Origin: a virus
Lineage: Duplodnaviria > Caudoviricetes
Length of the DNA: 53,651 bases
Reading direction: 5' to 3' (one strand)
Virus record (IMG/VR): IMGVR_UViG_3300050343_000116
Span: 1-53,651 of that record
Part shown: positions 7,312 through 52,594 of the stretch, one piece after another
Layout: each line of letters opens with the position of its first letter
How positions within the stretch are numbered: position 1 is the stretch's first letter
Program-made: the position numbers and the translations under genes
Notes under the pieces: model-generated
Told to the model about the DNA's origin: nothing
Database searches by the model: none
What the model saw: the letters and a program-made list of their open reading frames with translations, nothing else

Positions 7312-7336
7312 TTAATACTCTTGTGAGGAATTAAAA

Positions 7337-8192: not shown

Positions 8193-8207
8193 GATCGACT
8201 AATGATT

Positions 8208-36996: not shown

Positions 36997-37045
36997 TACC
37001 TTGCCAAGGTACAGGTCGCCAGTTCGAATCTGGTTTCCCGCTCCA
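36997..37045 (+). other. attP: attP core: 3' half of tRNA-Gly(GCC)
   Basis: TACC-TTGCCAA-GGTA anticodon arm, GCCAG-TTCGAAT-CTGGT T arm, TCCCGCTCCA end; no D arm; next to integrase. Confidence 0.9.
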
Positions 37046-37053
37046 TTCACTCT

Positions 37054-37157: not shown

Positions 37158-38045
37158 TCAGTCCGCTCTCAACTTGCCCTCAATTCGACTTGCAGCGTCC
37201 AACTTATGAAAGTTGTTCATGTGAGTATAGCGCTGTAACGAATTAAGCGAACGCCATCCACCAATCTCCATCAGCTCACGAGTGTCAGTCTGAGCTTGGA
37301 AGTGCCATGTCGCAAACGTGTGTCGCATTGTATGAAAGCTTGTGCCCTTAGGTAGTCCGGCTAAGTCCACAGCCTTCCGCCAAGTCTTATTACAGACCGC
37401 GCTACGACTGAACGGCTTGCCGTTATTCTGAACAAAGACGCCATCAATCTTGCCTCGCAAAAATGGCCTGCGCTTTACCAATTCCTCTTGAGCACGCTCA
37501 CGTCTTTTTAAGATGTCGCGTGCATCACCATTCAGAGGAATGAGTGCCGGCTTACCATTCTTTGTTTCGGTCGACTCAATCGACATGTACCTACCGTCCT
37601 TGCTTATCTGAGACCAGCGTAGTGTCCGTACGTTGTTGTTGCGTTGTCCGCAACTCAAAGCAAACTCCACCATGTCTGCTCTCAGCGGGTCTAGCCATCT
37701 CAGTAAAGATCTAACTTGACCCGGGTCTAAGTGCAACTCTCTCATCGCTTCCGGCAATGTCTCGATTTTTGGCACACCCTCAATGACTTCAAGCTTGTCC
37801 CGTGCGTAGCACAGTGTCAGCCGTAAGTACTTGAGGTACGTGTTCACAGTCGAGTTACTAAGGCCGTGCTCGTAAAGCAGCTCCTCTTGCAGATCGTTAA
37901 TGTCTTTAGCCCGGATAGTAGAAATGTTTCTATTACCCCAGCGCTTGACCATCTGCTTGATCGCTAGTTTTGCCGCACGACTCTTATCATTACCTCTGCG
38001 TGTTTTTATTTTTAAATACCGCTCTGCTACATCTTTGAACTTCAT
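37158..38045 (-). CDS. int: Tyrosine integrase
   Basis: GQR...K...FHTMRHTFATW...GGW...RY catalytic residues; start MKFKDV with GGAG RBS. Confidence 0.93.
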   Translation of the reverse strand: MKFKDVAERYLKIKTRRGNDKSRAAKLAIKQMVKRWGNRNISTIRAKDINDLQEELLYEHGLSNSTVNTYLKYLRLTLCYARDKLEVIEGVPKIETLPEAMRELHLDPGQVRSLLRWLDPLRADMVEFALSCGQRNNNVRTLRWSQISKDGRYMSIESTETKNGKPALIPLNGDARDILKRRERAQEELVKRRPFLRGKIDGVFVQNNGKPFSRSAVCNKTWRKAVDLAGLPKGTSFHTMRHTFATWHFQAQTDTRELMEIGGWRSLNSLQRYTHMNNFHKLDAASRIEGKLRAD

Positions 38046-38092
38046 ATGACTCTCCGTGTGTATGAAGCCCCGCACCGCAGCTATACCTTATC

Positions 38093-38118
38093 AAAAAAAG
38101 GGGGGCGTTTCCGCCCCC
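38093..38118 (-). terminator. Terminator between recombination operon and integrase
   Basis: GGGGGCG-GAAA-CGCCCCC then C and 7 T on minus strand. Confidence 0.85.
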
Positions 38119-38210
38119 AATCACAAGGAGCCACCTTTCGGGGCGGCACGTTTTTTAGTCACTGGTGTGCCAAGCCAGTCAGGAACTCGGGTACCTATCA
38201 GACCCGAGGA

Positions 38211-38450
38211 CTAATTAACAACCTCGCCTTCTGCCACTTCCTCTGCCTCTTGGGGGAGGGGTTCCGGCAGAAGCTTTTTAGCATCAGCCAAGGTTGCATC
38301 TGCGCCAGCTCGAGCTGCCTCGAGTAGGGGTGCAAGGATTTGTATTGCTTGGTTAGCTTGTTGAACGAGTGCCAGCATCTGGCGTGGTCGCTCTCCAATC
38401 TCTTGAAAGTTGTACGACTTACCGTCGATACTAATTGTTTGATCACTCAT
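38211..38450 (-). CDS. Hypothetical protein
   Basis: 79 aa, ISIDGKSYNF plus helix; ATGA-coupled to the upstream gene. Confidence 0.7.
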   Translation of the reverse strand: MSDQTISIDGKSYNFQEIGERPRQMLALVQQANQAIQILAPLLEAARAGADATLADAKKLLPEPLPQEAEEVAEGEVVN

Positions 38451-38845
38451 CTTTTATGCTTACTCCTAGCGTTGTTTCGTAAAAGTTCATATGACCTTGG
38501 CGCTTGCACCAAGATCCTTGCTTGTGGGACAACCCTATTCTTGCTGAGGTCACCTCGCCCACATATCTCACAGAAGTCATCAGGCGTGTACCAGTACTCC
38601 TGAATTCCTACGAGGGCTATTGAGACTGTGGGGCTGACCTCTAGGATCTCACCACCAACAGTCATAAGTTGTTCAACACAGCCGTCTTTGGAATACACAT
38701 TTAAGAGACAATCTTGCTTGCCCTTATGGTCCCTGACCCGTCGAACCCATATTTTGTGCTCGAACGTAGTCTCTGGACTTTGGGGGTCCATGTTCTTTCC
38801 CCCGTATAAGACACTATCGACAGCTCGTGTTAGCCGTAAACCCAT
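38447..38845 (-). CDS. Divergent tandem CsrA/RsmA-like RNA-binding protein
   Basis: LRLTRAVDSVLYGG, VGGEILEVSPTVSIALVGI and QARILVQAPRSYELLR align by eye to CsrA LILTRRVGETLMIG, VGETLMIGDEVTVTVLGV and QVRIGVNAPKEVSVHR. Confidence 0.65.
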   Translation of the reverse strand: MGLRLTRAVDSVLYGGKNMDPQSPETTFEHKIWVRRVRDHKGKQDCLLNVYSKDGCVEQLMTVGGEILEVSPTVSIALVGIQEYWYTPDDFCEICGRGDLSKNRVVPQARILVQAPRSYELLRNNARSKHKR

Positions 38846-38855
38846 ATCAATACCT

Positions 38856-39260
38856 TTAAAACGGAATGTCTTCCTCGGGAAAGTCAGCTTGCTGTGGTGC
38901 AGGCTGTGGTGCAGGCTGTGGGGCTGGCTTGTTTGCAGGTTTAGTAGGTAACCAGTACTCGACGTTCAGCTGAGAGACTGCGCCATCGCGCTTCTGTTCA
39001 GCAACATCTAGATTGTATTTAATGGCCTCACCGCCATTTATATCGAGTGCTCCCTGCATCTCATCGATCACGTCCTGATCGATCTTCAGCCAACCGTTGA
39101 AGCTTGGAATCTTCAGCGCTTGCTGCTCTTTACTAAGATCTGTAAACCAGCTGTACTGCTTGAGATGGTTGTACTTCTCAAGTTTTTTCTCTCGATCTAG
39201 CGGGTAAAGGCGCCCCTTACCAGCCTTAATTGCCTCGAAGGCAGTAGGTTTATTTTGCAT
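38856..39260 (-). CDS. Single-stranded DNA-binding protein-like
   Basis: (PAPQ)n linker and acidic DFPEEDIPF tail; in exo/Sak module. Confidence 0.65.
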   Translation of the reverse strand: MQNKPTAFEAIKAGKGRLYPLDREKKLEKYNHLKQYSWFTDLSKEQQALKIPSFNGWLKIDQDVIDEMQGALDINGGEAIKYNLDVAEQKRDGAVSQLNVEYWLPTKPANKPAPQPAPQPAPQQADFPEEDIPF

Positions 39261-40291
39261 TAGTCATCTCCGATTGATTTGATTGATGATTGCAGTGAAT
39301 TACTCTGCCGACGCCATTCGTCGATAGAGCTATCTTTCTCTAGCAGGGCTTGTTCCCCGCCAAGAAATTCAAATGCCCCGCGGAAATCCACCGGAGGAGT
39401 TTTCTTGATGACCTGTATAGACACGAATCCGTTGGTGATTGACCGCTCGTACTTTTTAACTAGCTCTTTCTTGAGTGCGTCACGGCTAGCCTTGAGGTGG
39501 TCTAGGTCTTGAAGTGCTTGATAGTTCATGACCTCAATCTCATTGATCTTGCCTTGAATGTCGGCAAGCTCAGACATCTGGTCATCTTGGATTTCATCGT
39601 AGTCAGGCTTCAGCGGATCAAGGTGCTTTTGAGCCCGTTCAGGATCGGCAGCCTCAGCTTGAATGAAGTCATACCAAGCCTTGAACAAATCAAGTCTAGT
39701 GACGGACCCCTTTTTTGGTGTTGGCAACAGCCTTCCTTCAAGCTCCTCGTCCAACCAATCCCAGTTGCGCTCTACTCTATCGATGTGCCATTGGCCTTCA
39801 GCCTGTGGATCGGTCGCTAAGTAGCACATGAAGTCACACCAATCTAGGTCACAGACCTCCATGACCATGTGGCACTGCCATAAATACATGATTCGCTTTT
39901 CGTCAAAGACAGAGTAAGGCGCCTTGGTCCACTTAGGATAGGGGCACTTGAACTCGGCACAGCCTTCAATACCAATCAGACCATCAGGCGATGCGGCTAG
40001 GAACGAGTGCTTTGAATGTACGACCAAGCCAGTCTCATCAACTTTGTACCGTTGAATTTGCTCAAGCTTGACGCGGGCATAGTCCTCCATCATGGAGCCA
40101 TGCTCTACTGCCGCGTTGGTTTGAAACTCAGACTCGGCACCAAGGATAGCCCTTACCTCTTGGCGGACAACTTCCTCGACCTTCATGTAAGGGTGCTTGT
40201 TCTCATAAGCAGCGCAGATACTTGCTTTGATCAGGCCAGCTCTGGCTTTTAGCCACCCCTCAGAACCTTGGGGGTGCATCATGCTGACCAC
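39260..40291 (-). CDS. YqaJ/lambda-type exonuclease
   Basis: QGSEGWLKARAG..KAS, HGSMME, LAASPDGL, EFKCP, WQCH.MEV. Confidence 0.9.
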   Translation of the reverse strand: MVSMMHPQGSEGWLKARAGLIKASICAAYENKHPYMKVEEVVRQEVRAILGAESEFQTNAAVEHGSMMEDYARVKLEQIQRYKVDETGLVVHSKHSFLAASPDGLIGIEGCAEFKCPYPKWTKAPYSVFDEKRIMYLWQCHMVMEVCDLDWCDFMCYLATDPQAEGQWHIDRVERNWDWLDEELEGRLLPTPKKGSVTRLDLFKAWYDFIQAEAADPERAQKHLDPLKPDYDEIQDDQMSELADIQGKINEIEVMNYQALQDLDHLKASRDALKKELVKKYERSITNGFVSIQVIKKTPPVDFRGAFEFLGGEQALLEKDSSIDEWRRQSNSLQSSIKSIGDD

Positions 40292-40950
40292 CCCTTCTTG
40301 CTACAGACCTCTTCCCACCGATTGAGACGGTAGTCTTCCAGACCGCGAGACTTCAGAGCCTTAACATATCGATCAAACATTTTTTGACCGGCAGTTTTTG
40401 TTCGCGCCTTTTGGATTTCTTCGAGGCTGGTCATCCAAAGCCTATCAATGCTGTTCCTGACTTTTGAGTCCGCTTCTGTGTCGTCCGTGGGTAAAACATC
40501 CCCAGAGGACTGGTCAGTGACTTCTTCTACAACTTCCGGCTCTTCTGCCGTTGGCTTCTTGAGCCACAGTTGATGGCCAAGGCCGAACTCAGCCATCGCC
40601 TTAACGCGACACCTTTGCTTGGCGGTGTTTATTTGAAAGCTGTTAGGGTTGCGTACAACATCACCGCCGTCTCTCACCATGTAAGAGGTGATCTGGGTGT
40701 GCCCTAAAACCGTCATGCGACACCTAACCTCGCAGGTACCGTCATTGAAGTAATGAACTTCCCGGCTTTCGGGGTCTTCGGTAAATTCCCATGTGTATTC
40801 TGGGAAGTTGTCCATCATGAGTACGTGCGCGTTCATCCAAGACACAGCGGGAAACTTTTCCCCGCTTATCGTTTCGGACTCAGTGCAGTGTGGTTTTATG
40901 TTTACAGCAGAAAGGGTTGCCCATATGTGGGCTTTAGAAGTCTTGTCCAT
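40279..40950 (-). CDS. Sak/Rad52-like single-strand annealing protein
   Basis: SWMNAH...FPEYTW...INTAKQRCRVKAMAEFGLG. Confidence 0.78.
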   Translation of the reverse strand: MDKTSKAHIWATLSAVNIKPHCTESETISGEKFPAVSWMNAHVLMMDNFPEYTWEFTEDPESREVHYFNDGTCEVRCRMTVLGHTQITSYMVRDGGDVVRNPNSFQINTAKQRCRVKAMAEFGLGHQLWLKKPTAEEPEVVEEVTDQSSGDVLPTDDTEADSKVRNSIDRLWMTSLEEIQKARTKTAGQKMFDRYVKALKSRGLEDYRLNRWEEVCSKKGWSA

Positions 40951-40989
40951 GTCGCATATCCGTGTAGTAAATCAATAGATTCACCACGA

Positions 40990-41017
40990 AGTTTACGCTT
41001 GCAAATGAGTTTGTCAA
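40990..41017 (-). promoter_or_regulatory. Sigma70 promoter of recombination/CsrA-like operon
   Basis: TTGACA-16 nt-TAAACT. Confidence 0.65.
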
Positions 41018-41160
41018 TTACTAGATGGATTTGGACTGTCTTTTCCTATTAATTTTGCGACCACATCGTCACATTCTTTTACATGTATCGATGGATTATC
41101 TTCAATAAATTTCCGGATTAGTTTGAATAAAGCCTCGTCCGTGAGTTTCTCTTTTCCCAT
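41014..41160 (-). CDS. 48-aa hypothetical protein downstream of repressor (not in ORF track)
   Basis: MGKEKLTDEALFKLIRKFIEDNPSIHVKECDDVVAKLIGKDSPNPSSN; AAGGA upstream. Confidence 0.5.
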   Translation of the reverse strand: MGKEKLTDEALFKLIRKFIEDNPSIHVKECDDVVAKLIGKDSPNPSSN

Positions 41161-41180
41161 TCTTCCGATCCTTGGTCTGG

Positions 41181-41588
41181 TTATTTAGCCAAAAAAGTCT
41201 TTAGATTTTCCATAAACGACTCAAGCGATTGCTCGTCAGACTCGCCCATTAGGACGAGAGCGGCCATCTGCTTAGCGCTCAAATCGATATTGTATTTATT
41301 TTCAAAGTTTTTACATCTGTGAATGAGTTCAGATAGTCTAGATTCTGAGATGAAAGCGCCTCTTGATTTTCCGGTCGACCATTCGTAGAAGTCTAAACCG
41401 AATTCATCTGCGAATTTTATTCCCGTTTGGATATTTTTTGGAAGGCTACCCTTCAGCCAAGCATCCGCGGTTGCGTTGCTACAGCCGGTCTTTCTAGCAA
41501 TTTCAGAGGCTCGCCCCCAAGCTGCGACTCCGCGTTTTGTTAGTTGTTCGTTTAGGTATTCCGATCGCTTCTGATTGTCATAGTGCAT
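41181..41588 (-). CDS. Xre-type HTH repressor candidate
   Basis: RASEIARKTGCSNATADAWLKGSLP HTH; divergent from replication genes; no S24 peptidase domain visible. Confidence 0.72.
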   Translation of the reverse strand: MHYDNQKRSEYLNEQLTKRGVAAWGRASEIARKTGCSNATADAWLKGSLPKNIQTGIKFADEFGLDFYEWSTGKSRGAFISESRLSELIHRCKNFENKYNIDLSAKQMAALVLMGESDEQSLESFMENLKTFLAK

Positions 41589-41678
41589 TTAGCTCATCCG
41601 TGTGAAGTTTTTTTAGTCTACTCGAAAAACTCTGTTAAATGCGAATTATTCTCATAAACTCGGTTATGATAATTAAAT

Positions 41679-41707
41679 TTGCACTATCAAAAGAATTTTC
41701 TTATCTT
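41679..41707 (+). promoter_or_regulatory. Rightward sigma70 promoter
   Basis: TTGCAC-17 nt-TATCTT in AT-rich divergent spacer. Confidence 0.55.
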
Positions 41708-41746
41708 TACATGCGCTTTACGGCGAACCACCACACGGAGTAGTTA

Positions 41747-42415
41747 ATGATTTTCAAACCTGCGGCTCACAAATCTCGGCACTACACCAAGCTGCCAAAC
41801 GATTTGCTGCGTGACCCAGACCTAACCCCGGAAGCCATAGGCATCCTAGCTTACCTTCTTACGCACGTTGACAACTGGCGTGTCACTCAGCGTCAGCTTA
41901 GTAACCACTTCAATTGCAGCCCCGGCCGGATTAAGAATATCGCCGATACCCTAGAGGCCTGCGGATACATACGAAGAGTTAGGTATATCGATCAGGGCAA
42001 GCATGTATTTGATTGGGAGGTATATGACGAAAAGCAAGATGTCGAAAATCGACATGTCGAAAATCAAGATGTCGAAAATCAGCACCTAAGAATAAACATA
42101 GTTACAGAAGAAACATCTACTAAGAAGAAACATTGGAAAGAAGAACTATCTGACTCCTGCCCTGAAGGCATTCCTAAACTGACGTGGCGTGAGTGGTGGG
42201 AGTACAAGGCTGGCACTCGCAAGCCGGGTAAGTCGACGATCACTAGGCAGACCCATGACTTCGAGACAATGGCCAAACACGGATTCGATTTATCAGAGCT
42301 AATCCCCTTCGCTATCAGTCGAGGATGGCAACGTATTGGGAGTCCAGACTGGGACTCGCTCAATCGATTTAAAAATAAACAAAGAACAGATGATTATCTT
42401 GCTGAGGTTAAGTAA
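41747..42415 (+). CDS. Replication initiator (winged HTH)
   Basis: YTKLPNDLLRDPDL..EAIGILAYLL...LEACGYI; C-terminal ISRGWQ; internal iterons. Confidence 0.8.
   Translation: MIFKPAAHKSRHYTKLPNDLLRDPDLTPEAIGILAYLLTHVDNWRVTQRQLSNHFNCSPGRIKNIADTLEACGYIRRVRYIDQGKHVFDWEVYDEKQDVENRHVENQDVENQHLRINIVTEETSTKKKHWKEELSDSCPEGIPKLTWREWWEYKAGTRKPGKSTITRQTHDFETMAKHGFDLSELIPFAISRGWQRIGSPDWDSLNRFKNKQRTDDYLAEVK
42039..42080 (+). repeat. Putative origin iterons
   Basis: ATGTCGAAAATC three times at 15-bp period (42039, 42054, 42069), followed by A-rich tract. Confidence 0.75.
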
Positions 42416-44256
42416 TGGATATACGTGTGCTCAAATCAGAGCTTGGGAGGTATGCCCATCAAATATGCCAAGAGTTGTTTCCCGAAGGGATCATAGAGTC
42501 GGGGTGTTACAAGGTAGGCAGCATCGAGGGGGACAAGGGACGGAGTTTTTCGTGCTACCTGCATGGCGATAAGGCTGGGAAGTGGATTGACTTTGCAACT
42601 GGCGATGGTGGCGACATGCTTGATCTCATCCAACATGGTCGAGGCATGTCACTTACTGAGGCCATGGAGTGGTCAGCTAAGCGCTACGGTATACGGGATT
42701 ACAGCCCCGCCCCAAAAATTTCGCAGTCGGCAAAGAAAAAATACTCCACCCCTGCCCCACCATCTAGAACCAGTAACAGCCTGATACATGAGTACATGCA
42801 GAAGCGTGGGTTCAGGGAGATGGGTGAGGTGTGCTTCCGGTACAAGATCTATGAGACGGAGACCCGTGGTGGGCTTGATGTCGTGTTCCCGTTCCATGAC
42901 GTCTCGGGTGACCTTGTATTCCTGAAGACAAAGCCGATGAATCATGATGGCAATCCGTCTACTCAGAAAGACCTCCGGCCGATACTGTTTGGTTGGCAGG
43001 CTATGCCGGCAAGTGCTCGCAAGGTGTGGATCACTGAGGGCGAGTGGGACGCGATTGCATGTGGTGAGCTTGGATTTCCAGCGTTGAGCGTGCCAATGGG
43101 CGGGGGGAAAGGCGCCAAGCAAACCAATTGGATCGCCAACGAATACGAGAACCTTGCCCGGTTTGAAGAGATCATCATTGCCACTGACATGGATGAGCAA
43201 GGAGATCTAGCGGCCCAAGAGATCATGAAGCGTTTAGGCGACCGGTGCTACCGGGTGAAGCTCCCAACAAAAGACATCAACGAGCTACTTCAAAAGCAGG
43301 GTTACGAGCAGTCTCGGCTGGTTCTCGAGGCGGCGTATGAAGAGGCCCGATGGCAAGATCCTGACACACTGCGCTCTGTCATGGAGTTTGAAAAAGACAT
43401 CGATGATTACTTCGATAAGTCGATCAATGACACGCAGGGGTTTGGCTCGGGGTGGAACAAAATAGACGAGGAAGACATACGGTTTCGGCCGGGCGAGATG
43501 TGGGGTATTACCGGCATCAACGGTCATGGCAAGAGCATGTGGCTAGGTCAGCTATGCCTGAATGCTGTTGAACAAGGGCAGAAGGTATTAATCGCTTCAT
43601 TCGAGATGAACCCAAAACAGACTCTTGGTCGCATGATGAAGCAGGCGGGAGGCAGCTCCGAGCCACCGAAGGACTACCGCCAAAAGCTGATGGAATGGAT
43701 GGGTGCAAACCTTTGGCTGTACGTCGACAACATAACGCCTAAGCCTGAAGACCTGATGAAGTGTTTCGAGTATGCGTACCGCCGCTACGGTGTTTCGGTG
43801 TTCGTCATTGACTCACTGACAAACATGGTTAGGCAGGACGACTTCGAGGGTCAGCAGAAATTTGTCGAGAAGGTCGTGAACTTCAAGATGACTACCGGCG
43901 CCACTGTGTTTTTGGTCACGCACTCCCGGAAGGGTGAGGACGAGCACAAAGCCCCGAACAAGTACGACGTCAAAGGTAGCGGATCGATTACCGATCTTGC
44001 CGATGGGTTTATGTCGTTGTGGAAAAACAAGCGAAAGGTCGAGCACCTCGAGCAGTGCCGAGTGTTAGGTGAAGAGCCAGACGAAAAGTTTACCAAGCAG
44101 TGGGACGTCTACCTCGAGATTCTGAAGAACCGTAACGGTGGATACGAGGGCAAGGTCGGTTTCGAGTTTGACAACCGCACCTGTCAGTACCTCGAGCGTC
44201 GATCAGGCCGGCCAAAGTATTACATCAAGTACTCCAAGGAGAATTCAAATGGATAA
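42415..44256 (+). CDS. Toprim primase-SF4 helicase
   Basis: WIDFATGDGGD, ITEGEWDAIA, ATDMDEQG, KDINE, GINGHGKS, VIDSL, LVTHSRK, KGSGSI, KNR. Confidence 0.92.
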   Translation: MDIRVLKSELGRYAHQICQELFPEGIIESGCYKVGSIEGDKGRSFSCYLHGDKAGKWIDFATGDGGDMLDLIQHGRGMSLTEAMEWSAKRYGIRDYSPAPKISQSAKKKYSTPAPPSRTSNSLIHEYMQKRGFREMGEVCFRYKIYETETRGGLDVVFPFHDVSGDLVFLKTKPMNHDGNPSTQKDLRPILFGWQAMPASARKVWITEGEWDAIACGELGFPALSVPMGGGKGAKQTNWIANEYENLARFEEIIIATDMDEQGDLAAQEIMKRLGDRCYRVKLPTKDINELLQKQGYEQSRLVLEAAYEEARWQDPDTLRSVMEFEKDIDDYFDKSINDTQGFGSGWNKIDEEDIRFRPGEMWGITGINGHGKSMWLGQLCLNAVEQGQKVLIASFEMNPKQTLGRMMKQAGGSSEPPKDYRQKLMEWMGANLWLYVDNITPKPEDLMKCFEYAYRRYGVSVFVIDSLTNMVRQDDFEGQQKFVEKVVNFKMTTGATVFLVTHSRKGEDEHKAPNKYDVKGSGSITDLADGFMSLWKNKRKVEHLEQCRVLGEEPDEKFTKQWDVYLEILKNRNGGYEGKVGFEFDNRTCQYLERRSGRPKYYIKYSKENSNG

Positions 44257-45527: not shown

Positions 45528-45783
45528 GCGCCACTTAGAGCTAGCCGCAGTAAGGCTAGAGTACCCACTGGTTGCGGAATACGTGCGCGAGAATGTCCCG
45601 GAGGATTTCCACGACATGATGTACGCTTCGCTGTACCTCGAACTACCCCAGCACTACGCCAAGCAGGACGTGGACCGAATCAAGGAGCTGTTAGCCATGC
45701 TCCCGGAGGAAGAGCCAGTCCGAGACTTCAATGAGATCGTGACCTATTGGACGCGTCGGATATGGGCCAAGAATCATGGCTAG
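45508..45783 (+). CDS. Hypothetical protein
   Basis: 91-aa ORF coupled to both neighbours. Confidence 0.6.
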   Translation: MRVPEFRRHLELAAVRLEYPLVAEYVRENVPEDFHDMMYASLYLELPQHYAKQDVDRIKELLAMLPEEEPVRDFNEIVTYWTRRIWAKNHG

Positions 45784-46196
45784 ACCTATTTACGAAACAG
45801 CGAAGGACAGAACCAACGAGGAAGATATCGCCAATCAGATCGCTGAGCGATACAACGCAAAAGCTGTCAAGGCAAAACGCCTGTATGGGCTTGACTGGTT
45901 CTTTGAGCGCGATGGGTACGTTGTGGGGATGGTTGAGATCAAGGCTCGTAGGTGTGCTAGCTCGGACTACAAGTACTTACATGATCAGCGCTGACAAGAT
46001 TGCGCGCATCAGGATGCTGTCCAACGTCTCAGGCATTCCCTCGTTTCTGTTTGTGTCGTGGACCGATTGTATTGGCTACATCAATCTAGCTGATCAGCCG
46101 GACTTCACGGCTGTTGGTGGTCGCAGGGACCGGGGGGATGATCAGGACGTGGAAGCTGTGTTGCACTATCAGATCGATAGGTTCATTCGGGTATAA
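45776..46196 (+). CDS. PD-(D/E)XK nuclease-like protein (apparent indel near 45975)
   Basis: LDWFF...VEIKAR then YMISADK...GGRRDRGD..DVE in the adjacent frame. Confidence 0.6.
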
Positions 46197-46218
46197 AAAA
46201 ACCCTACGGTTGTAGGGT
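46195..46218 (-). terminator. Terminator at the end of the minus-strand early block
   Basis: ACCCTAC-AACC-GTAGGGT followed by T-run. Confidence 0.6.
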
Positions 46219-46389
46219 CATCACAAGTAGTTTCATGGCTGGCTCTGGCATCTTCCGGTAGCCTCTGGTTCCGGGTGATCGGGTCCAGTTGTAAACGCCC
46301 TCAACCTTCATCCCCAGCAGTTCAGCTATTTCTTTTGCTGACAACCCGCGCCTACGCATTATGAGCTTCAGTGCTTCGTTGTTATCCAT
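46204..46389 (-). CDS. Small HTH DNA-binding protein
   Basis: GLSAKEIAELLGMKVEGVYNW...RKMP. Confidence 0.75.
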   Translation of the reverse strand: MDNNEALKLIMRRRGLSAKEIAELLGMKVEGVYNWTRSPGTRGYRKMPEPAMKLLVMTLQP

Positions 46390-46576
46390 ACTTCCCCCGC
46401 TTGAAAAACTCAGGGTAGACAATCTCTAGGGCCGGCTCATCGTTGAGCCTTAGCAATACAGTCGAGTAGTCAAACAGAATGCAGACGGGCTCTTGAAAGC
46501 GTTTTGCCATTTGCTCAGCCGCCTGCATCGCCAGTACGGCGTCTTCACTGTCATTGCTCGCGAAGTTAAATTTCAC
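46382..46576 (-). CDS. Hypothetical protein
   Basis: Coupled ORF with GAGG RBS. Confidence 0.6.
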   Translation of the reverse strand: MKFNFASNDSEDAVLAMQAAEQMAKRFQEPVCILFDYSTVLLRLNDEPALEIVYPEFFKRGKYG

Positions 46577-46794
46577 GGGTAGACGACCTCGCTCAAATAG
46601 TTCTCAAGCTTTTTCTCGTCGTCTTCGTTCAGCTCGATGATTGTCCCTTGCCACTCCAGCCAATCCCACTCAACCTCGCAGAAAGGCGTCGACTCAATGA
46701 CCCCCCATGCCTCAGTGTCCTCTTTCCAGCGGTGGACCTTGGCATTGATGACGTCAATGTCCGCCAGCTTAATTTCAATATGCGCTGTGACCAT
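46573..46794 (-). CDS. Hypothetical protein
   Basis: TAATG coupling, GGAG RBS. Confidence 0.6.
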   Translation of the reverse strand: MVTAHIEIKLADIDVINAKVHRWKEDTEAWGVIESTPFCEVEWDWLEWQGTIIELNEDDEKKLENYLSEVVYP

Positions 46795-47231
46795 TACTGA
46801 AGCTCCCACTTATAAGCGATGTAGTCATTGTGCGACTGCTCTTTAAAGCCACACTCCCGGTGCAGTCGTACCGTGTAGCTTCCGTTGCTGAATCTAGCGC
46901 CAGCAATGTACGCGGGCTCAGCAAAGTAGCCGCTGACCGACAACTTGGTCTCAGGAAAGACTGAGTCGCAGATCTTGTGCAGGGTTTCTTCCTCGTCACC
47001 ATGAAACCCGTGCTCGTCGATGACTAGGTTTATCTCCAGAACCTCGTACCACTGGTCCTTTGCACCTTCCATGTTTTCCATATAGAACAGCCACTTGTGC
47101 GGTCCCAATGCTGACTGCTTCATGGTTCCGGAAATATCAATCAACCGGGGGTGATGTGGGTTGGAGATAAAGTGTTTTTCTCCCTCCAAAATGTCGATAT
47201 CCGCTTTGTCGCCAATCTCAAATCTGCTCAT
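46794..47231 (-). CDS. Hypothetical protein
   Basis: 145-aa ORF, GGGAG RBS. Confidence 0.65.
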   Translation of the reverse strand: MSRFEIGDKADIDILEGEKHFISNPHHPRLIDISGTMKQSALGPHKWLFYMENMEGAKDQWYEVLEINLVIDEHGFHGDEEETLHKICDSVFPETKLSVSGYFAEPAYIAGARFSNGSYTVRLHRECGFKEQSHNDYIAYKWELQ

Positions 47232-47445
47232 GGTTTAACTCCCTAGCGAGTAGGCTTTTGAGTGCTGTCAGGTCTGCCTTGTCGATGATGACCTCGCCAA
47301 GCGTTCGCTCGAGCGCAGTCATTAATTTGCGTCGCTTCAGCAGCTCCACAGCCATTGATTTCTGATAGTCTGCGCGGAGCTTCACTCCACTTCCGGCTGG
47401 AGACACCATCGTCTCCAAAATGTGCGTTGGTAGTTCATAGTGCAT
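47218..47445 (-). CDS. Hypothetical protein
   Basis: MHYELP start, GAGG RBS. Confidence 0.6.
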   Translation of the reverse strand: MHYELPTHILETMVSPAGSGVKLRADYQKSMAVELLKRRKLMTALERTLGEVIIDKADLTALKSLLARELNHEQI

Positions 47446-47626
47446 TTGCTTTTTGCCTCTTCTCGTTAAGCTTTCGGACCAGCTTGGGCAAGTCCTCAAC
47501 TTGGAACTCGTCGAACGTAAACTCGACGCATAGGATGGTGACTACCTCGTGCATCAGGTAGCCACCGTTTAACAGGTCAGTAGCCCTGTCGATCACTGTG
47601 TATCGGTAAGCTGGGCTGATCACCAC
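47435..47626 (-). CDS. Hypothetical protein
   Basis: GGGAGG RBS, GTG start. Confidence 0.55.
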   Translation of the reverse strand: MVISPAYRYTVIDRATDLLNGGYLMHEVVTILCVEFTFDEFQVEDLPKLVRKLNEKRQKANAL

Positions 47627-48060
47627 TGCCTCCCGGTTACAACTTTCTCAAAATTAATCCGATCCCAGCCCGTGAACTCAGAGTCGTCCTCGTCAGTTTC
47701 GAAGTGGTCGCTTACACGGTCATAGATATTGTTGATGATCGACTCACCTTGATCACTCCAAAAGTAATCAGAAATGCACACCATCGGATCGTGCTCTGAT
47801 CCATTGGCGTAGATCAGCCAGAAGCCACCCAGACGTTGCCATGTGCCATCGCTCCACTGCTCGTGGACAATGAGGTAGTCCTCTTCCGTAGCCGCCATAG
47901 ACTCCAGCACAGAGGCCATGTCGGTTGATTTGTGGAGCGTGTCCTCTTCTCCGTCGTTGACGGTGATTGCTAGCCGCATCAATTCCTGCGGCGCTAAGAT
48001 TTCCAGAACCAACTGGGCCACGCAGGCCCGGTCGGAGAAAGGTAAGGTGTTGAGATTCAT
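47620..48060 (-). CDS. Acidic early phage protein
   Basis: ITVNDGEE...LGGFWLIYANG...ISDY; GGAGG RBS. Confidence 0.7.
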   Translation of the reverse strand: MNLNTLPFSDRACVAQLVLEILAPQELMRLAITVNDGEEDTLHKSTDMASVLESMAATEEDYLIVHEQWSDGTWQRLGGFWLIYANGSEHDPMVCISDYFWSDQGESIINNIYDRVSDHFETDEDDSEFTGWDRINFEKVVTGRQW

Positions 48061-48362
48061 GACTGCACCTCCATGCTTTGCGTGTCGTTGTTCCAAGCAA
48101 GCTTGTGCTTTGACGTTGACTCGATGGTTTTGAGTAGATGCTTCAGCGCTGTAAGCTTCTCGTAGGCGGCAACCTGCGCGGAATCAATCGAGCTTGTGCA
48201 GATTGACACCCATTCGCGTTCGGCGTTGTTTCCCCAGTCACTCGCCAAAAGAACATCGATTGTGTCATCGACCCCCTCGAGCCTATCGATCTCGCGACTG
48301 AGTTGCGTGGTTAGTAAGTGCATTTGTGCATGATTGAGCTTGATGGTTAATACGTTCTTCAT
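48057..48362 (-). CDS. Hypothetical protein
   Basis: GGAGG RBS, ATGA coupling. Confidence 0.65.
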   Translation of the reverse strand: MKNVLTIKLNHAQMHLLTTQLSREIDRLEGVDDTIDVLLASDWGNNAEREWVSICTSSIDSAQVAAYEKLTALKHLLKTIESTSKHKLAWNNDTQSMEVQS

Positions 48363-48379
48363 GACTGTGCCTCCATGTC

Positions 48380-48418
48380 AAAAAAAATCGGGGCGGGGAA
48401 AGAAAACCCACCACCCCA
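48380..48418 (-). terminator. Rho-independent terminator
   Basis: GGGGTGGTGGG...CCCCGCCCC stem then GA and 8 T on minus strand. Confidence 0.7.
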
Positions 48419-48425
48419 GTGCCTG

Positions 48426-48695
48426 TTATTCGTAAGGGGTAAGACCACGGGGTAGAGAGCGACCCTGCTTGAGTAGACGCAAGAACTCCTTAACGGTGCC
48501 GGGGAATCCTGAGCCCTGCTCGTTGAACTTGGAGATGTCTCCAAACCAGCAGTGGTCGGGGTCGAGGATACCTCGCTGGAATGCCATGCCCTGCACCTCA
48601 GCCCAGTCTGCATCGTTTTGGTAAACCGATCGGCAGATACGGTCACCGATTGGTTGCTTCTTGAAGCCCTGAAGCTTCACGACTTTGTTGTTCAT
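48426..48695 (-). CDS. Early protein, paralog A
   Basis: Close paralog of 49034-49294; AGGAGG RBS. Confidence 0.8.
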   Translation of the reverse strand: MNNKVVKLQGFKKQPIGDRICRSVYQNDADWAEVQGMAFQRGILDPDHCWFGDISKFNEQGSGFPGTVKEFLRLLKQGRSLPRGLTPYE

Positions 48696-48729
48696 ACAGT
48701 CCTCCTGTTGGACGGTAGAGTGGTGAATT

Positions 48730-48785
48730 CCACAGACGCCTCACGGCGTTTCGGTCGGTATTCCTCCGACAGCTCGTCAGTGCGG
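48730..48785 (-). ncRNA. Type I hammerhead ribozyme (HHR-A)
   Basis: CCGCA CUGACGA G(CU)GUCGG AGGAAUA CCGACC GAAA CGCC GUGA GGCG UC/UGUGG; GUC cleavage predicted between 48735 and 48734. Confidence 0.88.
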
Positions 48786-48863
48786 GGTTAGTACAGCGGC
48801 GCATAAAGCGCCATGATGAAAACGAAATTTAGCGATACAGGATGAACACTTTCTGAATGTCGC

Positions 48864-49037
48864 TCATGATTTTTTCTCCTTAACGACTTCCGCGAACTCA
48901 CGCAGTCGGTTGTCGGTTGCCAACTTCTTGATGGCTTGCTTGTACACATGCTGTGCGCCCATGCGGCTGAGACCGATCTCTTTGCCGATGTCCGCAAAGG
49001 TCATCTCGATGCCTTCGGGCAGATTGTTCTTGCTCAT
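48864..49037 (-). CDS. 57-aa sigma70 region 4-like HTH protein (not in ORF track)
   Basis: MTFADIGKEIGLSRMGAQHVYKQAIKKL; AAGGAGG RBS; ATGA coupling. Confidence 0.65.
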   Translation of the reverse strand: MSKNNLPEGIEMTFADIGKEIGLSRMGAQHVYKQAIKKLATDNRLREFAEVVKEKKS

Positions 49038-49294
49038 GACTGGCTCCTCCTTTTGCCACTGCGCAGGATGGACAGGAACTCGGAGACTGTTCCGGCGAAA
49101 CCAGAACCTTGCTCGTTGAATTTTGCGATCTCACCGAACCAGCAGTGATCGGGGTCTAGGATTCCACTCTCGAACGCCATCCCCTGCACGACTGCCCAGT
49201 CGCGGTCATTTTGATAAACGGACCGGCATATGCGGTCACCGATAGGTTGCTTTTTGAAACCCGTGAGTTTCACGACATTGTTTTTCGTGCTCAT
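49034..49294 (-). CDS. Early protein, paralog B
   Basis: Close paralog of 48426-48695. Confidence 0.8.
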   Translation of the reverse strand: MSTKNNVVKLTGFKKQPIGDRICRSVYQNDRDWAVVQGMAFESGILDPDHCWFGEIAKFNEQGSGFAGTVSEFLSILRSGKRRSQS

Positions 49295-49521
49295 GACTCA
49301 TTCCTCATTGTTGAAGCGTTAAGCTCGTCGACCTCGCGCTGGTGACTGTCCGGCATCTCGTCCTCGTCTGCCCCACACAGACCACAAGACAGCTGAGTGG
49401 CTTTGTGTTTGATGTATTTATCTGGACCTCCCTCACACTCGCAGTCCCAGAAATTTGGATTAAGCTTGGGGCTGTACCAATCCTCCTCGCTGATATGTTC
49501 TGGTCTTGTATTCGAGTTCAT
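49291..49521 (-). CDS. Small Zn-binding protein
   Basis: FWDCEC...CGLCG...PDS. Confidence 0.7.
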   Translation of the reverse strand: MNSNTRPEHISEEDWYSPKLNPNFWDCECEGGPDKYIKHKATQLSCGLCGADEDEMPDSHQREVDELNASTMRNES

Positions 49522-50348
49522 GCGGCTTTCTCCTCGTGGGTAAATGAGGCCTTTGATGGCCTCTTGAAAAATGCAAATTTAGGGTCGTCTTGAGACACCG
49601 TGAGCGTTGCGGTAAAGGTGACGTGTGATCCTTTGCCTGCCTCGTTGAGGCTGTCCGGCTTGGTGCCCCAGACCTTGAACCCCCGGTCATCGAGAACAAG
49701 CATTTTGACGACCACTGAGTGGTATGAGTAATACCCGTCCTCGGCTCGGGTTCGGAGTATCTCGCCAGAGATCTCTACGCGGCCCTCAGGGGCATCCTCC
49801 GCCGCCTCGTACTCTGCCTGCTCGATTGCAATTCGCTGAGCTTCAGCGGCACGTTTGGGCGCTTCAATGTAGTCCTCGATCATGGTCACTACATCCTTGC
49901 AGACCGTGTCCAGATACAGATGACAGACCTGCCCATCGCGGCCGTCAAACACACTGCCGTGCCCGACAGGTAGCTCCTGCTGAAGCCCGCCCACAATTTC
50001 CTGAGCCAGATCAGCTGGGACGTAGGTGATGCGGCTGGTGTTGGACCCGCCGGAGCTTGGCTTGGGCTCGCCCGTCGGCAAGTACTCGCCACCCATCGCG
50101 ACCTTGTGGTGCTCGACAACGCCGGCCCCCGTTGGGTCTTCCACATACCAGACCCAGTCGTAATGATCGCAAGGTGCGTGGAGGCGCCAATCAGCCCCAA
50201 GAGTGGGCTCGATGCCATCATTAAGATCAGCGGCATTAGAGATCAGCCGGGTCATCCGACCTTTGCGGCCGGACTCCGACTTTGCGAGGTACGCGCGGTA
50301 CCGGTTGAGCACGTCAGTAATGAGTGCCTGAGTGTCTGAATGGATCAT
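49518..50348 (-). CDS. Early protein with C-terminal OB-fold-like region
   Basis: GRVEISGEI...KMLVLDDRGFKVWGT...VTFTAT...DDPKFAFFKRP; GGAGG RBS. Confidence 0.7.
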   Translation of the reverse strand: MIHSDTQALITDVLNRYRAYLAKSESGRKGRMTRLISNAADLNDGIEPTLGADWRLHAPCDHYDWVWYVEDPTGAGVVEHHKVAMGGEYLPTGEPKPSSGGSNTSRITYVPADLAQEIVGGLQQELPVGHGSVFDGRDGQVCHLYLDTVCKDVVTMIEDYIEAPKRAAEAQRIAIEQAEYEAAEDAPEGRVEISGEILRTRAEDGYYSYHSVVVKMLVLDDRGFKVWGTKPDSLNEAGKGSHVTFTATLTVSQDDPKFAFFKRPSKASFTHEEKAA

Positions 50349-50551
50349 GCCGCCACCTCCTCGCGTCGTCGCAATTCGCCTCTGCAATACCAGAACTCAT
50401 CCCAGTACTGCCCGGACTTCGGCCCATGCGGCATCGCCTCAAGTGCCCGCCAGCAGTCCATGGCGACGTACTCCAGAGAGTCGCTGGAGCGCTTCTTGCA
50501 GAGCGCCTGATACTCGCTGTGCCATTGGTGTTGCCCGTATGAGTAATTCAT
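50345..50551 (-). CDS. Hypothetical protein
   Basis: YWDEFWYC..ELRRR; GGAGG RBS and ATGA coupling. Confidence 0.7.
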   Translation of the reverse strand: MNYSYGQHQWHSEYQALCKKRSSDSLEYVAMDCWRALEAMPHGPKSGQYWDEFWYCRGELRRREEVAA

Positions 50552-50829
50552 GCCGCCACCTCCTGCTTCGCCTTGAGACGGTTGTGCGCTTCCTGCACGT
50601 CAATGCCGATAGATGCCAGCTTGCGCTCTACGGTAAAGACTCGCTGTGCGGCGGTGTCGACCCACTCATCGATGAACTCAGGCACAAAGCCGTCGAGCGT
50701 GTTGCTGTAATGTCGCTTGCGATCGAGCGCGTAACCACAGTCTCGACGGGCGTCTACAAGCTCTGCGATGTCGTCAGCGATAAGGCTGGCCAGAACAAGG
50801 CAAATTGGATTGTTGGTGATGTCGCTCAT
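50548..50829 (-). CDS. Hypothetical protein
   Basis: GGAGG RBS and ATGA coupling. Confidence 0.7.
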   Translation of the reverse strand: MSDITNNPICLVLASLIADDIAELVDARRDCGYALDRKRHYSNTLDGFVPEFIDEWVDTAAQRVFTVERKLASIGIDVQEAHNRLKAKQEVAA

Positions 50830-51068
50830 GCCGTCACCTCCCGGTACTCGTTGCCAGTGACCTGCACGTAGCGCTCAGTGGCGCCCATGTGGTGGCCGGT
50901 GAAGTCGTAGATTGGTGCACTGAGCTGAACCACCCCAGCGGCCCGGTCGTGCCACTTGGTGCTGAAGCTGGCCATGTTCTGGCCGAAGAACCGCAGGGTG
51001 TCCGCGGTGAAGAAATACGGACCAAGAACGCCGGCCTGTTTAATTTGTGCGGGTGTTGGTTTTCTCAT
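50826..51068 (-). CDS. Hypothetical early protein
   Basis: MRKPTPAQIK...PYFFTADTLRFFGQ; CAGGAG RBS. Confidence 0.7.
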   Translation of the reverse strand: MRKPTPAQIKQAGVLGPYFFTADTLRFFGQNMASFSTKWHDRAAGVVQLSAPIYDFTGHHMGATERYVQVTGNEYREVTA

Positions 51069-51102
51069 GTTGATCTCCTGTTGATCAGCAGTCGGGTGGA
51101 TT

Positions 51103-51159
51103 CCCGTGACGCCCCGGAGGACGTTTCGGCTCGTGTCCAGCGAGCCATCATCAGACGGG
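51103..51159 (-). ncRNA. Type I hammerhead ribozyme (HHR-B)
   Basis: CCCGU CUGAUGA (U)GGCUCG CUGGACA CGAGCC GAAA CGUCC UCCG GGGCG UC/ACGGG; cleavage predicted between 51108 and 51107. Confidence 0.88.
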
Positions 51160-51375
51160 CTAAAAAATGAGATTGCTGACATCGGTCTTGCAGAGCTTGC
51201 CTCCCTCAACCCGGTACACATCAATCGAGTCGAGTGCCCTGATTTTTGCCCGAGTCCGAACCATCCACTCAGAACCCTCAACTGCGTTGAGATCTGTTCG
51301 GGTGAAGTCGGAGAGGCGCTTGCACTTGCGTGCCAAGCCGAGCCCGTTGGGATTGTTAGCTGAGATGTAATACAT
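51160..51375 (-). CDS. 71-aa protein flanked by two hammerheads
   Basis: AGGAGG RBS; stop codon abuts stem I of HHR-B. Confidence 0.7.
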   Translation of the reverse strand: MYYISANNPNGLGLARKCKRLSDFTRTDLNAVEGSEWMVRTRAKIRALDSIDVYRVEGGKLCKTDVSNLIF

Positions 51376-51408
51376 GGTGACCTCCTGTTGGTCGTAAGCG
51401 GTGGATTT

Positions 51409-51465
51409 CCGCAGACACCCCGAAGGGTGTTTCGGCCGGTTTCCCTCCGGCTCTCGTCAGTGCGG
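51409..51465 (-). ncRNA. Type I hammerhead ribozyme (HHR-C)
   Basis: CCGCA CUGACGA G(A)GCCGG AGGGAAA CCGGCC GAAA CACCC UUCG GGGUG UC/UGCGG; cleavage predicted between 51414 and 51413. Confidence 0.9.
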
Positions 51466-51660
51466 TGCCTTGCTCAGGCAGGCCTTGCAGTCGGTCATGT
51501 GGGGAGACTCTCCCTCGACCTCGAACCCGTCCCCATAGCTGGGGATGGCTCGACCGCAAAGCGTCGTTGTCTCGTCGTCGGTCAAGTGGACCTTGGACAC
51601 GGGACCAAGTCGGTCCCGATAAATCCCAATCCACTGACTCCACCTCACTGCCTCCCTCAT
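51457..51660 (-). CDS. Small Zn-binding-like protein
   Basis: VHL...TLCG...DCKAC; CAGGAG RBS; stop codon lies in the HHR-C core. Confidence 0.65.
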   Translation of the reverse strand: MREAVRWSQWIGIYRDRLGPVSKVHLTDDETTTLCGRAIPSYGDGFEVEGESPHMTDCKACLSKAPH

Positions 51661-52220
51661 GCTGTCAGCTCCTGTTGATCGCGAAGCTCCATGACGCACT
51701 GGCAAACCATCTCTCGATCGCAAGTGTCACCGTCGAATGGAAAGTCTGGCCTACTTACCAGACGCATCAGGTAGCCTTGATAGGCCTCGTCCCAAGTCAT
51801 GGGCTCATGTCTCCCGTCGTCGTAAATTCCGCCGGGTCCGTAGAAATCCATGCAGTAGTCAATAAACTCGTTCACGTCCGCGGGGAGATAACTCTTCATG
51901 CTGTCACCCCCCCAAGCGGCTGAGCCGTCCTCGATGGCCAGCTCCTCGCGCCAGACCTCAAGCTGGACCTCTGACCCGCTTTTCTTGAGTAGCGCATGAG
52001 CCTCGTCATGAATCTGGTCGAGCTGATCAGCGGTCCAAGTGATGGATTCGCAGTGCGCGTGCTGGCCTGCCTTGGATAGCTCAGCCTCAGCCTGCTCGAG
52101 CGCGATCAGGGATTTGCGTAATGCGGCAAATTCGGTCTGTCGGCCTACATGCACTTGGACGGCCTGACGGGTCCACTCTGAGTACTGCTCGATGTCGTGC
52201 TTCATTGTTAGGTCAAACAT
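51657..52220 (-). CDS. Hypothetical ORF, probably two genes (second starts at 51899) fused by a homopolymer indel
   Basis: Internal G-run-TGACAGCATGA junction like neighbouring gene junctions; FYGPGGIY...FDGDTCDRE motif in the second half. Confidence 0.55.
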   Translation of the reverse strand: MFDLTMKHDIEQYSEWTRQAVQVHVGRQTEFAALRKSLIALEQAEAELSKAGQHAHCESITWTADQLDQIHDEAHALLKKSGSEVQLEVWREELAIEDGSAAWGGDSMKSYLPADVNEFIDYCMDFYGPGGIYDDGRHEPMTWDEAYQGYLMRLVSRPDFPFDGDTCDREMVCQCVMELRDQQELTA

Positions 52221-52249
52221 AGTTATCTCTCCGTGTGGTTTGGTCTGGG

Positions 52250-52534
52250 TTAGACGAGGTAAGGCGTGTAGCCGTGGAATGACTTGTAGGCCTTGCCGAA
52301 TGCGTCCAGCTCACGCTGGGGCAGATCCCAGACGTAGGCATCCTGATACCGGTCGTACAGCTCACTCTCCTTGTCCTCCTGCCGCATGGCGACGTCGTGG
52401 TACCGGTCGCTGTCGGGATCGAGTGCGTCCAGCTTGAGCTGGTGCTTATCGACCACGGCGCAGTAGCGGCGGTCTGCCTCGTACAGGTGGTTGAGTGCTC
52501 GCTGGTGCTTGGCGTTGATTGCTGTGTGGTTCAT
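52250..52534 (-). CDS. First early gene, hypothetical protein
   Basis: ACCACACGGAG RBS; 94 aa. Confidence 0.7.
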   Translation of the reverse strand: MNHTAINAKHQRALNHLYEADRRYCAVVDKHQLKLDALDPDSDRYHDVAMRQEDKESELYDRYQDAYVWDLPQRELDAFGKAYKSFHGYTPYLV

Positions 52535-52594
52535 GTCTAGCTCTCCGTGTGGTTTGTCACAATTGACACATGCCGGTCAGCGACCGGGCACGTA

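Follow-up and report, generated by a model that had tools for sequence, protein, structure and literature searches.

ACAC joined to GGA at the ribosome-binding sites of six early and lysogeny genes of a marine temperate phage

Six early and lysogeny genes of a marine temperate phage carry the motif ACACGGA, that is ACAC followed by GGA, at their ribosome-binding sites (RBSs). The window that we analyzed is the complete IMG/VR virus record IMGVR_UViG_3300050343_000116 (53,651 bp, 49% G+C, completeness rating 100%), and the genes concerned are those for an integrase, Sak, a repressor-like protein and a replication initiator, together with the first two genes of a long leftward early operon (referred to hereafter as e1 and e2). 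A first-pass annotation of the window had placed ACACGGA before these six starts; all six positions are correct (Table 1), the association with starts is not a product of chance, and the motif is a start-associated element of a known kind, with a new sequence, fewer copies and another host phylum than its closest described counterpart.

The signal lies in where the motif is placed. Window-wide, the count of ACACGGA is ordinary (eight copies on both strands against 5.59 ± 2.39 expected; 19 of 100 shuffles reach 8), and six of these eight lie on the coding strand, 7–9 nt before an ATG (counted from the end of GGA); copy number is thus at chance level whereas placement is not, and the signal is positional. 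Taking all GGAs of the window, and treating as RBS-like those with an ATG or GTG 5–10 nt downstream that opens an open reading frame (ORF) of at least 60 amino acids, we found ACAC before 6 of 86 RBS-like GGAs and before 2 of the 1298 others (expected 0.17, Fisher P = 1.2e-6), an enrichment beyond what Shine–Dalgarno (SD) sites alone would give. Gene class separates the starts in the same way: ACACGGA precedes 6 of 31 early or lysogeny genes and none of 36 late genes (P = 0.007), and the looser form CA-Y-GGA precedes 8 of 31 and, again, none of 36 (P = 0.0012). The 37-kb late region (positions 1–37000) has no coding-strand ACACGGA at all, its sole copy (34405–34411) being antisense, which bears out the earlier remark that the motif is missing from structural gene starts. 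Late genes also use GGAG, but after G or T (TGGGAG, CTGGAG).

Sequence beyond the core is shared in part. Three copies (e1, e2 and initiator) extend to ACCACACGGAG and two (repressor and Sak) continue as GGAT, both as first reported, and CACACGGA is common to five of the six start-site copies. In textbook pairing between the 3′ tail of 16S rRNA and GGAG, the one letter 5′ of GGAG that could lengthen the helix is an adjacent A, not C; ACAC as an extension of 16S pairing is ruled out on that scheme. With ACAC tied to RBS-like GGA sites, and oriented and spaced as a translation signal would be, the motif exceeds an SD alone, and the first-pass annotation was right to say so.

Allowing for a variable spacer extends the pattern and relates it to the way in which genes are initiated. 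We searched for ACA(N)GGA (ACA, 0 or 1 nt, then GGA, 4–11 nt from the start) and counted a leader as independent when its gene is first in a unit, as inferred from gene arrangement, or stands at least 20 nt from the previous gene. By these definitions, ACA(N)GGA is present in 10 of 14 independently initiated early leaders; among early genes that overlap or are closely coupled it is present in 1 of 21 (P = 5e-5), and among late genes with gaps of at least 20 nt in none of 18. Beyond the six ACACGGA copies, CAACAGGAG(G) stands in four early leaders and ACATGGAGG in one; the spacing is flexible, both ACA-GGA and ACA-N-GGA being present. A terminator-like hairpin (38118–38101) precedes the integrase leader, and a TTGACA-16-TAAACT site precedes that of Sak. 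Since the motif stands on leaders behind gaps, terminators and hammerhead-like cores, it marks leaders where ribosomes bind on their own, and within this phage group it should be useful for identifying true starts and independently translated units.

The motif is conserved in close relatives. A search with the primase–helicase recovered 80 related viral loci (51–100% identity) that together hold ACACGGA 89 times, in 52 cases at RBS distance from an ORF of at least 40 amino acids (near-identical records included). In the group with 93% primase–helicase identity (loci L006–L008), all six leaders retain ACA and GGA amid changing flanks. Differences affect 3 of 90 letters in the motif compared with 36 of 269 in the flanks (P = 0.004), and the three within the motif are artefacts of where gaps were placed when the initiator leaders were aligned. 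At the spacer there is a single substitution, C to T, in the leader of integrase. As these loci are nearly identical to one another, the effective sample is six leaders. Among distant orthologues (34–50% protein identity), ACA-N-GGA recurs in leaders that are otherwise unalignable, with unique leaders carrying it in 11/39 cases for the initiator, 9/18 for orf134, 8/37 for the repressor, 2/21 for integrase and 2/31 for Sak; before the coupled genes of relatives it was found in none (exonuclease 0/30, primase–helicase 0/36, orf132 0/30, orf111 0/40). When RBS-like GGAG sites of the group are de-duplicated, 239 remain, and the trinucleotide most often seen at −4 to −2 is ACA (31 sites; ACAC 14, ACAA 11, ACAT 5). 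By eye, many integrase and initiator leaders of relatives show the looser form CA-Y-GGAG-A.

An ACA-type RBS is not a host-wide feature and is rare in gammaproteobacterial genomes, the class to which the host probably belongs (see below). In one candidate host-type genome (287 kb), ACAN stands before 1 of 74 RBS-like GGAG sites, and ACACGGAG-N5-9-ATG occurs 0–19 times per genome in 301 gammaproteobacterial genomes versus four times in the 53.7-kb phage, the highest count being 19 in the 4.0 Mb of genome G293. This tally takes in three genomes flagged as unpublished (G049, G151, G306), on which the statement of rarity does not depend. A literal literature search for ACACGGAG returned no paper on this motif among the matches listed.

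Among described phenomena, the nearest is found in Cluster K mycobacteriophages, whose start-associated sequence (SAS) is of the same kind and not of the same sequence family. The original report gives SAS as an asymmetric 13-bp repeat containing an SD core, with 11–19 copies lying 3–7 bp before starts; it is confined to the non-structural half of the genome, rare in the host and of unexplained function, its authors suggesting a site for a host or phage factor (PMC3203893). Both elements are asymmetric, carry an SD core in one orientation a few nucleotides before the start codon, lie in the non-structural half before genes of unrelated families, are seldom seen in host genomes, and have conserved positions that are unable to pair with 16S rRNA (PMC3203893). 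They differ in that SAS is a 13-bp GGGATAGGAGCCC, about half of whose copies have 17-bp inverted repeats upstream (PMC3203893), whereas the phage motif has a core of 7–9 nt (CACACGGAG), six copies (11 with ACA(N)GGA) and no common upstream repeat; it comes from another host phylum, bears no sequence relation to SAS and does not match the Cluster K consensus GGGATAGGAGCCC. Start-site repeat motifs were known from one mycobacteriophage group, where they are so far unexplained (PMC3203893), and the window adds a second case, unrelated to the first, in an abundant marine phage of what is probably an uncultured gammaproteobacterium.

We tentatively read the motif as a lineage-specific, start-associated RBS in which an ACA enhancer triplet is fused to a short SD, serving independently initiated early and lysogeny cistrons and spread in part by copying of leaders; this may well be correct, although we stop short of calling it probable. 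In such an arrangement, the short SD core (GGAG; GGA alone in Sak and the repressor), 6–9 nt from the ATG, would be the ribosome-binding site, and the ACA directly 5′ of it, within a C/A-rich, G-poor stretch (CACAC) and unable to lengthen 16S pairing, would most likely act in cis as a translation enhancer. It would help the 30S subunit to land, perhaps via protein S1, on leaders that recruit ribosomes for themselves (first genes of units, and genes behind gaps, terminators or ribozymes), and overlapping, translationally coupled genes could dispense with it. The leader cassette may then have spread within the mosaic early region by duplication or recombination, as is suggested by pairs of leaders that are near-identical beyond the core (e1 with e2, Sak with repressor).

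An enhancer of this type has been documented. In Salmonella yifK, an ACA lies just upstream of the SD and all three of its bases raise translation, with G the worst substitute and a triple replacement costing up to ~90%; in dppA, replacing four ACAs causes a >100-fold loss, and the effect is independent of SD–AUG spacing (PMC3879156). Yang, Figueroa-Bossi and Bossi propose that ACA is a 30S anchor, possibly acting through S1, and point out that it also belongs to the CsrA consensus (PMC3879156). The phage motif coincides with the triplet whose effect on translation was measured in Salmonella, and resembles the yifK and dppA elements in its ACA immediately upstream of the SD, its C/A-rich, G-poor stretch, its probable gammaproteobacterial host class and an SD that is short or badly placed (PMC3879156). 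The enhancer reading fits because the motif is found at de novo initiation sites, with short SDs and in a G-poor context; ACAC is mostly unpaired in four of the six predicted leader folds, and these folds contain no hairpin common to all six leaders. The published enhancer concerns two cellular genes and has no strict position (PMC3879156), whereas the phage motif is fixed at 0–1 nt from GGA, extends over a set of genes and is known from sequence alone; GcvB, the small RNA (sRNA) that in enterics silences enhancers of this type, was not found (RF00022) in five candidate host-type genomes.

Several points weigh against an enhancer fused to the SD. Predicted accessibility of ACAC is high in four leaders only, and in all 11 cases ACA lies 0 or 1 nt from GGA, a strict adjacency that the published enhancer does not need and that looks more like one bipartite recognised unit or copied cassettes. 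The enhancer was demonstrated in Salmonella, which may not match the host of this phage. Gene calls and start choices in the window are heuristic, coming from our own scripts with no curated annotation. The orf134 leader sits where the exonuclease gene ends, in the codons CAY GGA GAR for His-Gly-Glu, so that its C/T variation is synonymous and its conservation partly coding. In five whole relatives (~71% primase–helicase identity), the ACA(N)GGA distribution is non-significant (early independent 10/100, early coupled 4/58, late 7/137), and exact ACACGGA is no commoner than a reversed control. Given this weakness in the ~71% relatives, it is the window's own lineage that uses the motif densely, and relatives have kept it in part in their lysogeny and replication leaders.

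The first-pass annotation had proposed instead a translational regulon, read by host CsrA and/or a CsrA-like protein of the phage, that could tie the life-cycle decision to host carbon status. Host CsrA would then bind ACA-N-GGA over the SD and repress early and lysogeny translation, with the repressor site the strongest, which on the sequence features below we regard as unlikely. We think it similarly unlikely that the level of free CsrA, following carbon and growth state, would act through ACA and GGA blocks over the SD of almost all independently initiated early and lysogeny cistrons to gate the whole early programme and tilt the lysis–lysogeny choice with no phage CsrA needed; were it so, a global host post-transcriptional regulator would be tied to both the early programme and the lysogeny decision of a phage. 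The consensus obtained for CsrA by in vitro ligand selection (SELEX) is RUACARGGAUGU, in which ACA and GGA are 100% conserved and GGA is preferred in hairpin loops (PMC4347634). All six leaders have ACA-N-GGA and hence both invariant blocks, and a bipartite protein site would be in keeping with the strict 0–1 nt spacing between ACA and GGA; in the spacer, C or T stands where SELEX had a purine (C in all six leaders), the 3′ side is mostly GGAGA in place of GGA-N-G, and UG follows in the repressor leader only. That leader holds CACGGATG, which fits the CsrA/RsmA consensus CANGGANG in full, as had been noted. GGA falls in a predicted hairpin loop in one leader of six, that of integrase (minimum free energy and pair probabilities, 72-nt pieces), and in relatives the SDs of Sak and integrase fall in the stem of a predicted hairpin.

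Published site lists and target criteria likewise cut both ways. ACGGA and ATGGA are among the listed primary CsrA/RsmA sites, and a single-site RBS oligonucleotide with AACGGAGA bound RsmA in vitro (PMC4066749); A(N)GGA lies at the SD in 6/6 leaders, and 26 of 67 genes overall also have one. In the same report, every validated target has an SD site, at least three sites in all and at least two site pairs 10–60 nt apart (PMC4066749). The six leaders carry 1, 2, 1, 1, 2 and 1 sites within −80 to +40, so that none is multi-site in this sense; none passes on site pairs (Sak has a single pair), and the three of 67 genes that pass throughout are all genes without the motif. The window contains no CsrB-like GGA cluster (maximum 6 per 120 nt).

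As for the protein, the tRNA-Gly fragment at the putative attP matches gammaproteobacterial lineages and five of five candidate host-type genomes encode CsrA (PF02599), though these genomes may not be the phage's true host. The CsrA-like protein that had been ascribed to the phage did not materialize: a six-frame Pfam search of the window gave no PF02599 match at E ≤ 1 (phmmer best E = 4.3), and 1.08 Mb of related phage DNA gave no CsrA-like ORF (phmmer best E = 0.76). Prophage-encoded csrA-like genes are known in other phages (PMC7546807, PMC11295528); for CsrA sites on phage early leaders, literature searches, one of them combining CsrA, prophage and lysis–lysogeny, yielded no report among the matches listed, which were available in part. 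Because the same motif stands on the repressor and on lytic genes, it would by itself give no bias to the life-cycle decision. Of the proposed regulon there remain, then, a signal that is more than an SD, its restriction to early and lysogeny genes, the two SELEX blocks and the CsrA genes of the candidate hosts, while the phage protein, the multi-site layout and the bias in the decision lack support, and loop placement of GGA is predicted in one leader of six. Set beside CsrA/RsmA targets, the phage leaders are alike in an ACA-N-GGA that overlaps the SD, in the fit of the repressor site to CANGGANG and in candidate hosts that encode CsrA; known targets have clusters of at least three sites with GGA in loops, whereas the leaders, as far as their letters alone can be read, have single sites with a pyrimidine spacer, GGA mostly outside predicted loops and the 3′ half mostly missing. 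The documented ACA-enhancer mechanism is simpler and fits at least as well as CsrA, and the two are not mutually exclusive. Separately, the 48-amino-acid ORF between repressor and Sak (41014–41160, − strand) has A(N)GGA-type sites at five places from −80 to +40 and, alone among the early genes, passes the sequence criteria published for CsrA targets.

Copying alone could also account for shared letters: the motif would be part of a leader cassette with no function beyond the SD, left from junction duplication or recombination and perhaps offering short homologies for gene exchange. We find this more doubtful than host CsrA, although several features speak for it. The e1 and e2 leaders share 16 identical letters in a 42-nt repeat (71%), those of Sak and repressor share a 21-nt repeat (76%), and the strong pattern is confined to the window's lineage and weak at ~71% identity. 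In L006 and L008, moreover, the e1–e2 leader (window 52220–52260) is kept while the gene behind it has been replaced by a homologue of window ORF 50548–50829 in place of e2, so that genes have been exchanged at this conserved junction. Against a purely passive origin, the flanks of the integrase, initiator, repressor and Sak leaders are unrelated and have only the core in common, the core letters hold while flanks diverge in the 93% group, and distant orthologues (34–45% protein identity) have ACA-N-GGA in leaders that cannot otherwise be aligned; nor does passive homology predict the link to independent initiation (10/14 vs 1/21).

A different trans-acting factor is improbable. One candidate is an RNA-binding protein or nuclease of the phage, shutting down early mRNAs at their GGAG-type SDs; another is a GcvB-type sRNA, rich in GU, that pairs with CACAC. 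The motif is indeed specific to a class, early and not late, and pairing just upstream of the SD is how GcvB silences the ACA enhancers (PMC3879156). The Pfam scan of 30 early and lysogeny proteins left 20 with no match at E ≤ 0.01, which makes a novel factor possible, but among the 30 it found no RNA-binding or nuclease family except the YqaJ and PDDEXK DNA nucleases. Besides the missing GcvB in candidate hosts, the window has no complementary CTCCGTGT outside the sites themselves. T4 early genes have GGAG Shine–Dalgarno sites that are sensitive to RegB, and the two phages are alike in an early-gene SD class told apart by sequence from late genes; here, Pfam and PHROGs searches found no RegB-like protein, late genes also use GGAG and two sites are GGAT. 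A DNA-level site (operator, initiator iteron or promoter element) that lies near starts by chance is very improbable: an extra copy does lie within the initiator gene (42277–42283), and the repressor and initiator copies form an inverted pair (I1) 127 nt apart, but the motif is asymmetric, at starts it contains the SD core on the coding strand 7–9 nt from ATG, and TGCACTAT repeats and a TGTCAATTGTGACA palindrome are better operator candidates.

Table 1. Positions of the motif copies, of the genes behind them and of neighboring features in the window.
Feature	Position	Strand	Remarks
ACACGGA(G), integrase leader	38053..38059	−	7 nt before ATG 38045-38043
ACACGGA(T), Sak leader	40959..40965	−	8 nt before ATG 40950-40948; 63-nt gap to upstream ORF
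ACACGGA(TGA), repressor-like gene leader	41597..41603	−	8 nt to ATG; best match to CsrA-type consensus
ACACGGA(G), initiator leader	41733..41739	+	7 nt to ATG
AACCACACGGAGAG, e1 leader	52544..52550	−	9 nt to ATG
AACCACACGGAGAG, e2 leader	52230..52236	−	9 nt to ATG; within 42-nt repeat D2 (71%)
ACACGGA inside initiator gene	42277..42283	+	not at start; background
ACACGGA antisense to 2348-aa tail gene	34405..34411	−	not at start; background
CAACAGGAG, leader of ORF 51457-51660	51670..51675	−	ACA abuts GGA, no spacer
CAACAGGAGG, leader of ORF 51160-51375	51383..51388	−	downstream of hammerhead-like core 51414-51460
CAACAGGAG, leader of ORF 50826-51068	51076..51081	−	downstream of hammerhead-like core 51108-51154
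CAACAGGAGG, leader of ORF 48426-48695	48703..48708	−	downstream of hammerhead-like core 48735-48780
ACATGGA(GG), leader of ORF 48057-48362	48372..48378	−	ACA-N-GGA form; 63-nt upstream gap
Hammerhead-like cores	48735-48780, 51108-51154, 51414-51460	−	CTGAnGA, stem, CGAAAC, stem, GTC
Integrase	37158-38045	−	PF00589 E = 3.6e-27
Sak	40279-40950	−	SSAP_Sak PF06378 E = 4.5e-15
Repressor-like gene	41181-41588	−	phrog_8 transcriptional regulator E = 2.7e-4; first leftward gene of divergent region
Replication initiator (helix–turn–helix)	41747-42415	+	HTH_36 and replication-initiator PHROGs; first rightward gene
Primase–helicase	42415-44256	+	replication block, behind initiator
e1, first leftward early gene	52250-52534	−	
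e2, second early gene	51657-52220	−	29 nt past e1 stop

The genes with the motif sit in the part of the genome that follows a long late region. Packaging, head and tail genes occupy the + strand from 1 to 36,921; a lysogeny–recombination block on the − strand then comprises integrase, small ORFs, a YqaJ-type exonuclease, Sak, the 48-amino-acid ORF and the repressor-like gene, and the leftward early operon runs from 52534 down to 46204. The majority of early proteins are without a Pfam family match. An Rfam search of the whole window gave no family reaching its gathering score and no tRNA gene, and megablast against cultured phages gave zero matches; by tblastn the best identity is only ~39%, to Pseudomonas, Vibrio and lambdoid phages, so that the host is not readable from it. 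DNA of the phage is present in seawater and viral metagenomes from 15 studies. Several late genes at ~2600–8200 (+) are split by shifts of frame where relatives have intact orthologues (a 529-amino-acid protein of genome G006 aligns in window frames 2, 3, 1, 2, and a 517-amino-acid protein in 2, 1, 2), which makes the late-gene calls there unreliable; the splits could be assembly indel errors or reflect a decayed copy.

The likely host was approached through the region adjoining integrase. Positions 36998–37046 (+), with a terminator hairpin behind them, correspond to the 3′ portion of a sequence resembling tRNA-Gly(GCC) and are probably the attP core; the same region gives a weak Rfam match to the rimP leader (27.2 bits, E = 0.024). 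A search for exact copies of its T-arm and acceptor end, allowing any variable loop, gave 22 contigs among 185,579 species genomes, 20 of which are labelled Gammaproteobacteria, Thiotrichales, Ectothiorhodospiraceae or Granulosicoccaceae, the other two being metagenome-assembled genome bins labelled Halobacteria. As these contigs are mostly gammaproteobacterial, we infer that the host is probably an uncultured marine gammaproteobacterium. None of the 22 tRNA-matching loci has a prophage or phage homologue, and a primase–helicase search of genome contigs for a prophage found nothing.

The first-pass annotation had also linked ribozyme leaders to ACAGGA, and three hammerhead-like cores are indeed each followed, ~36 nt from the core to the ATG, by a leader ending in CAACAGGAG(G). 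The pattern search that located such cores gave five matches versus 0.34 expected, and Rfam scores on them are sub-threshold (RAGATH-1-hammerhead 21.1 bits against a cutoff of 56.3, Hammerhead_II 16.4 bits). Each core has a small hairpin after GTC whose stem differs from the others yet stays complementary (GCGG/CCGC, CGGG/CCCG, GTGG/CCAC), and at 51460 the TGA stop of the upstream ORF falls inside the CTGA box. In relatives (L003–L082), RBS-like GGAG most often has CTGA directly in front of it (52 de-duplicated clusters versus 4.2 expected), and these sites are probably further hammerhead cores, CTGAGGAG fitting CTGAnGA; hammerhead-type ribozymes would then be very frequent in this phage group.

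Other elements lie close to the leaders. An (A/G)TGGAA(G/A)ATCC element is conserved 5–8 nt upstream of the repressor SD in many relatives, and a similar GGAAATCCACC stands behind each hammerhead-like core of the window (51406–51396, 51101–51091 and 48731–48721, − strand). In the ~71% group (e.g., L018, L010, L012, L036), the Sak SD GGAGAC has GTCTCC 9–10 nt upstream and the integrase SD has GTCTC, both read by eye; these would form SD-occluding hairpins in the two leaders. The early promoter, also read by eye, has a 19-nt spacer and is missing from the list of the promoter scan. Inverted repeats that contain TGCACTAT (41575–41587 and 41680–41692) flank the repressor–initiator region, one of them overlapping the first codons of the repressor, and a TGTCAATTGTGACA palindrome (52558–52571) lies between the early promoter region and e1; both the repeats and the palindrome are candidate operators.

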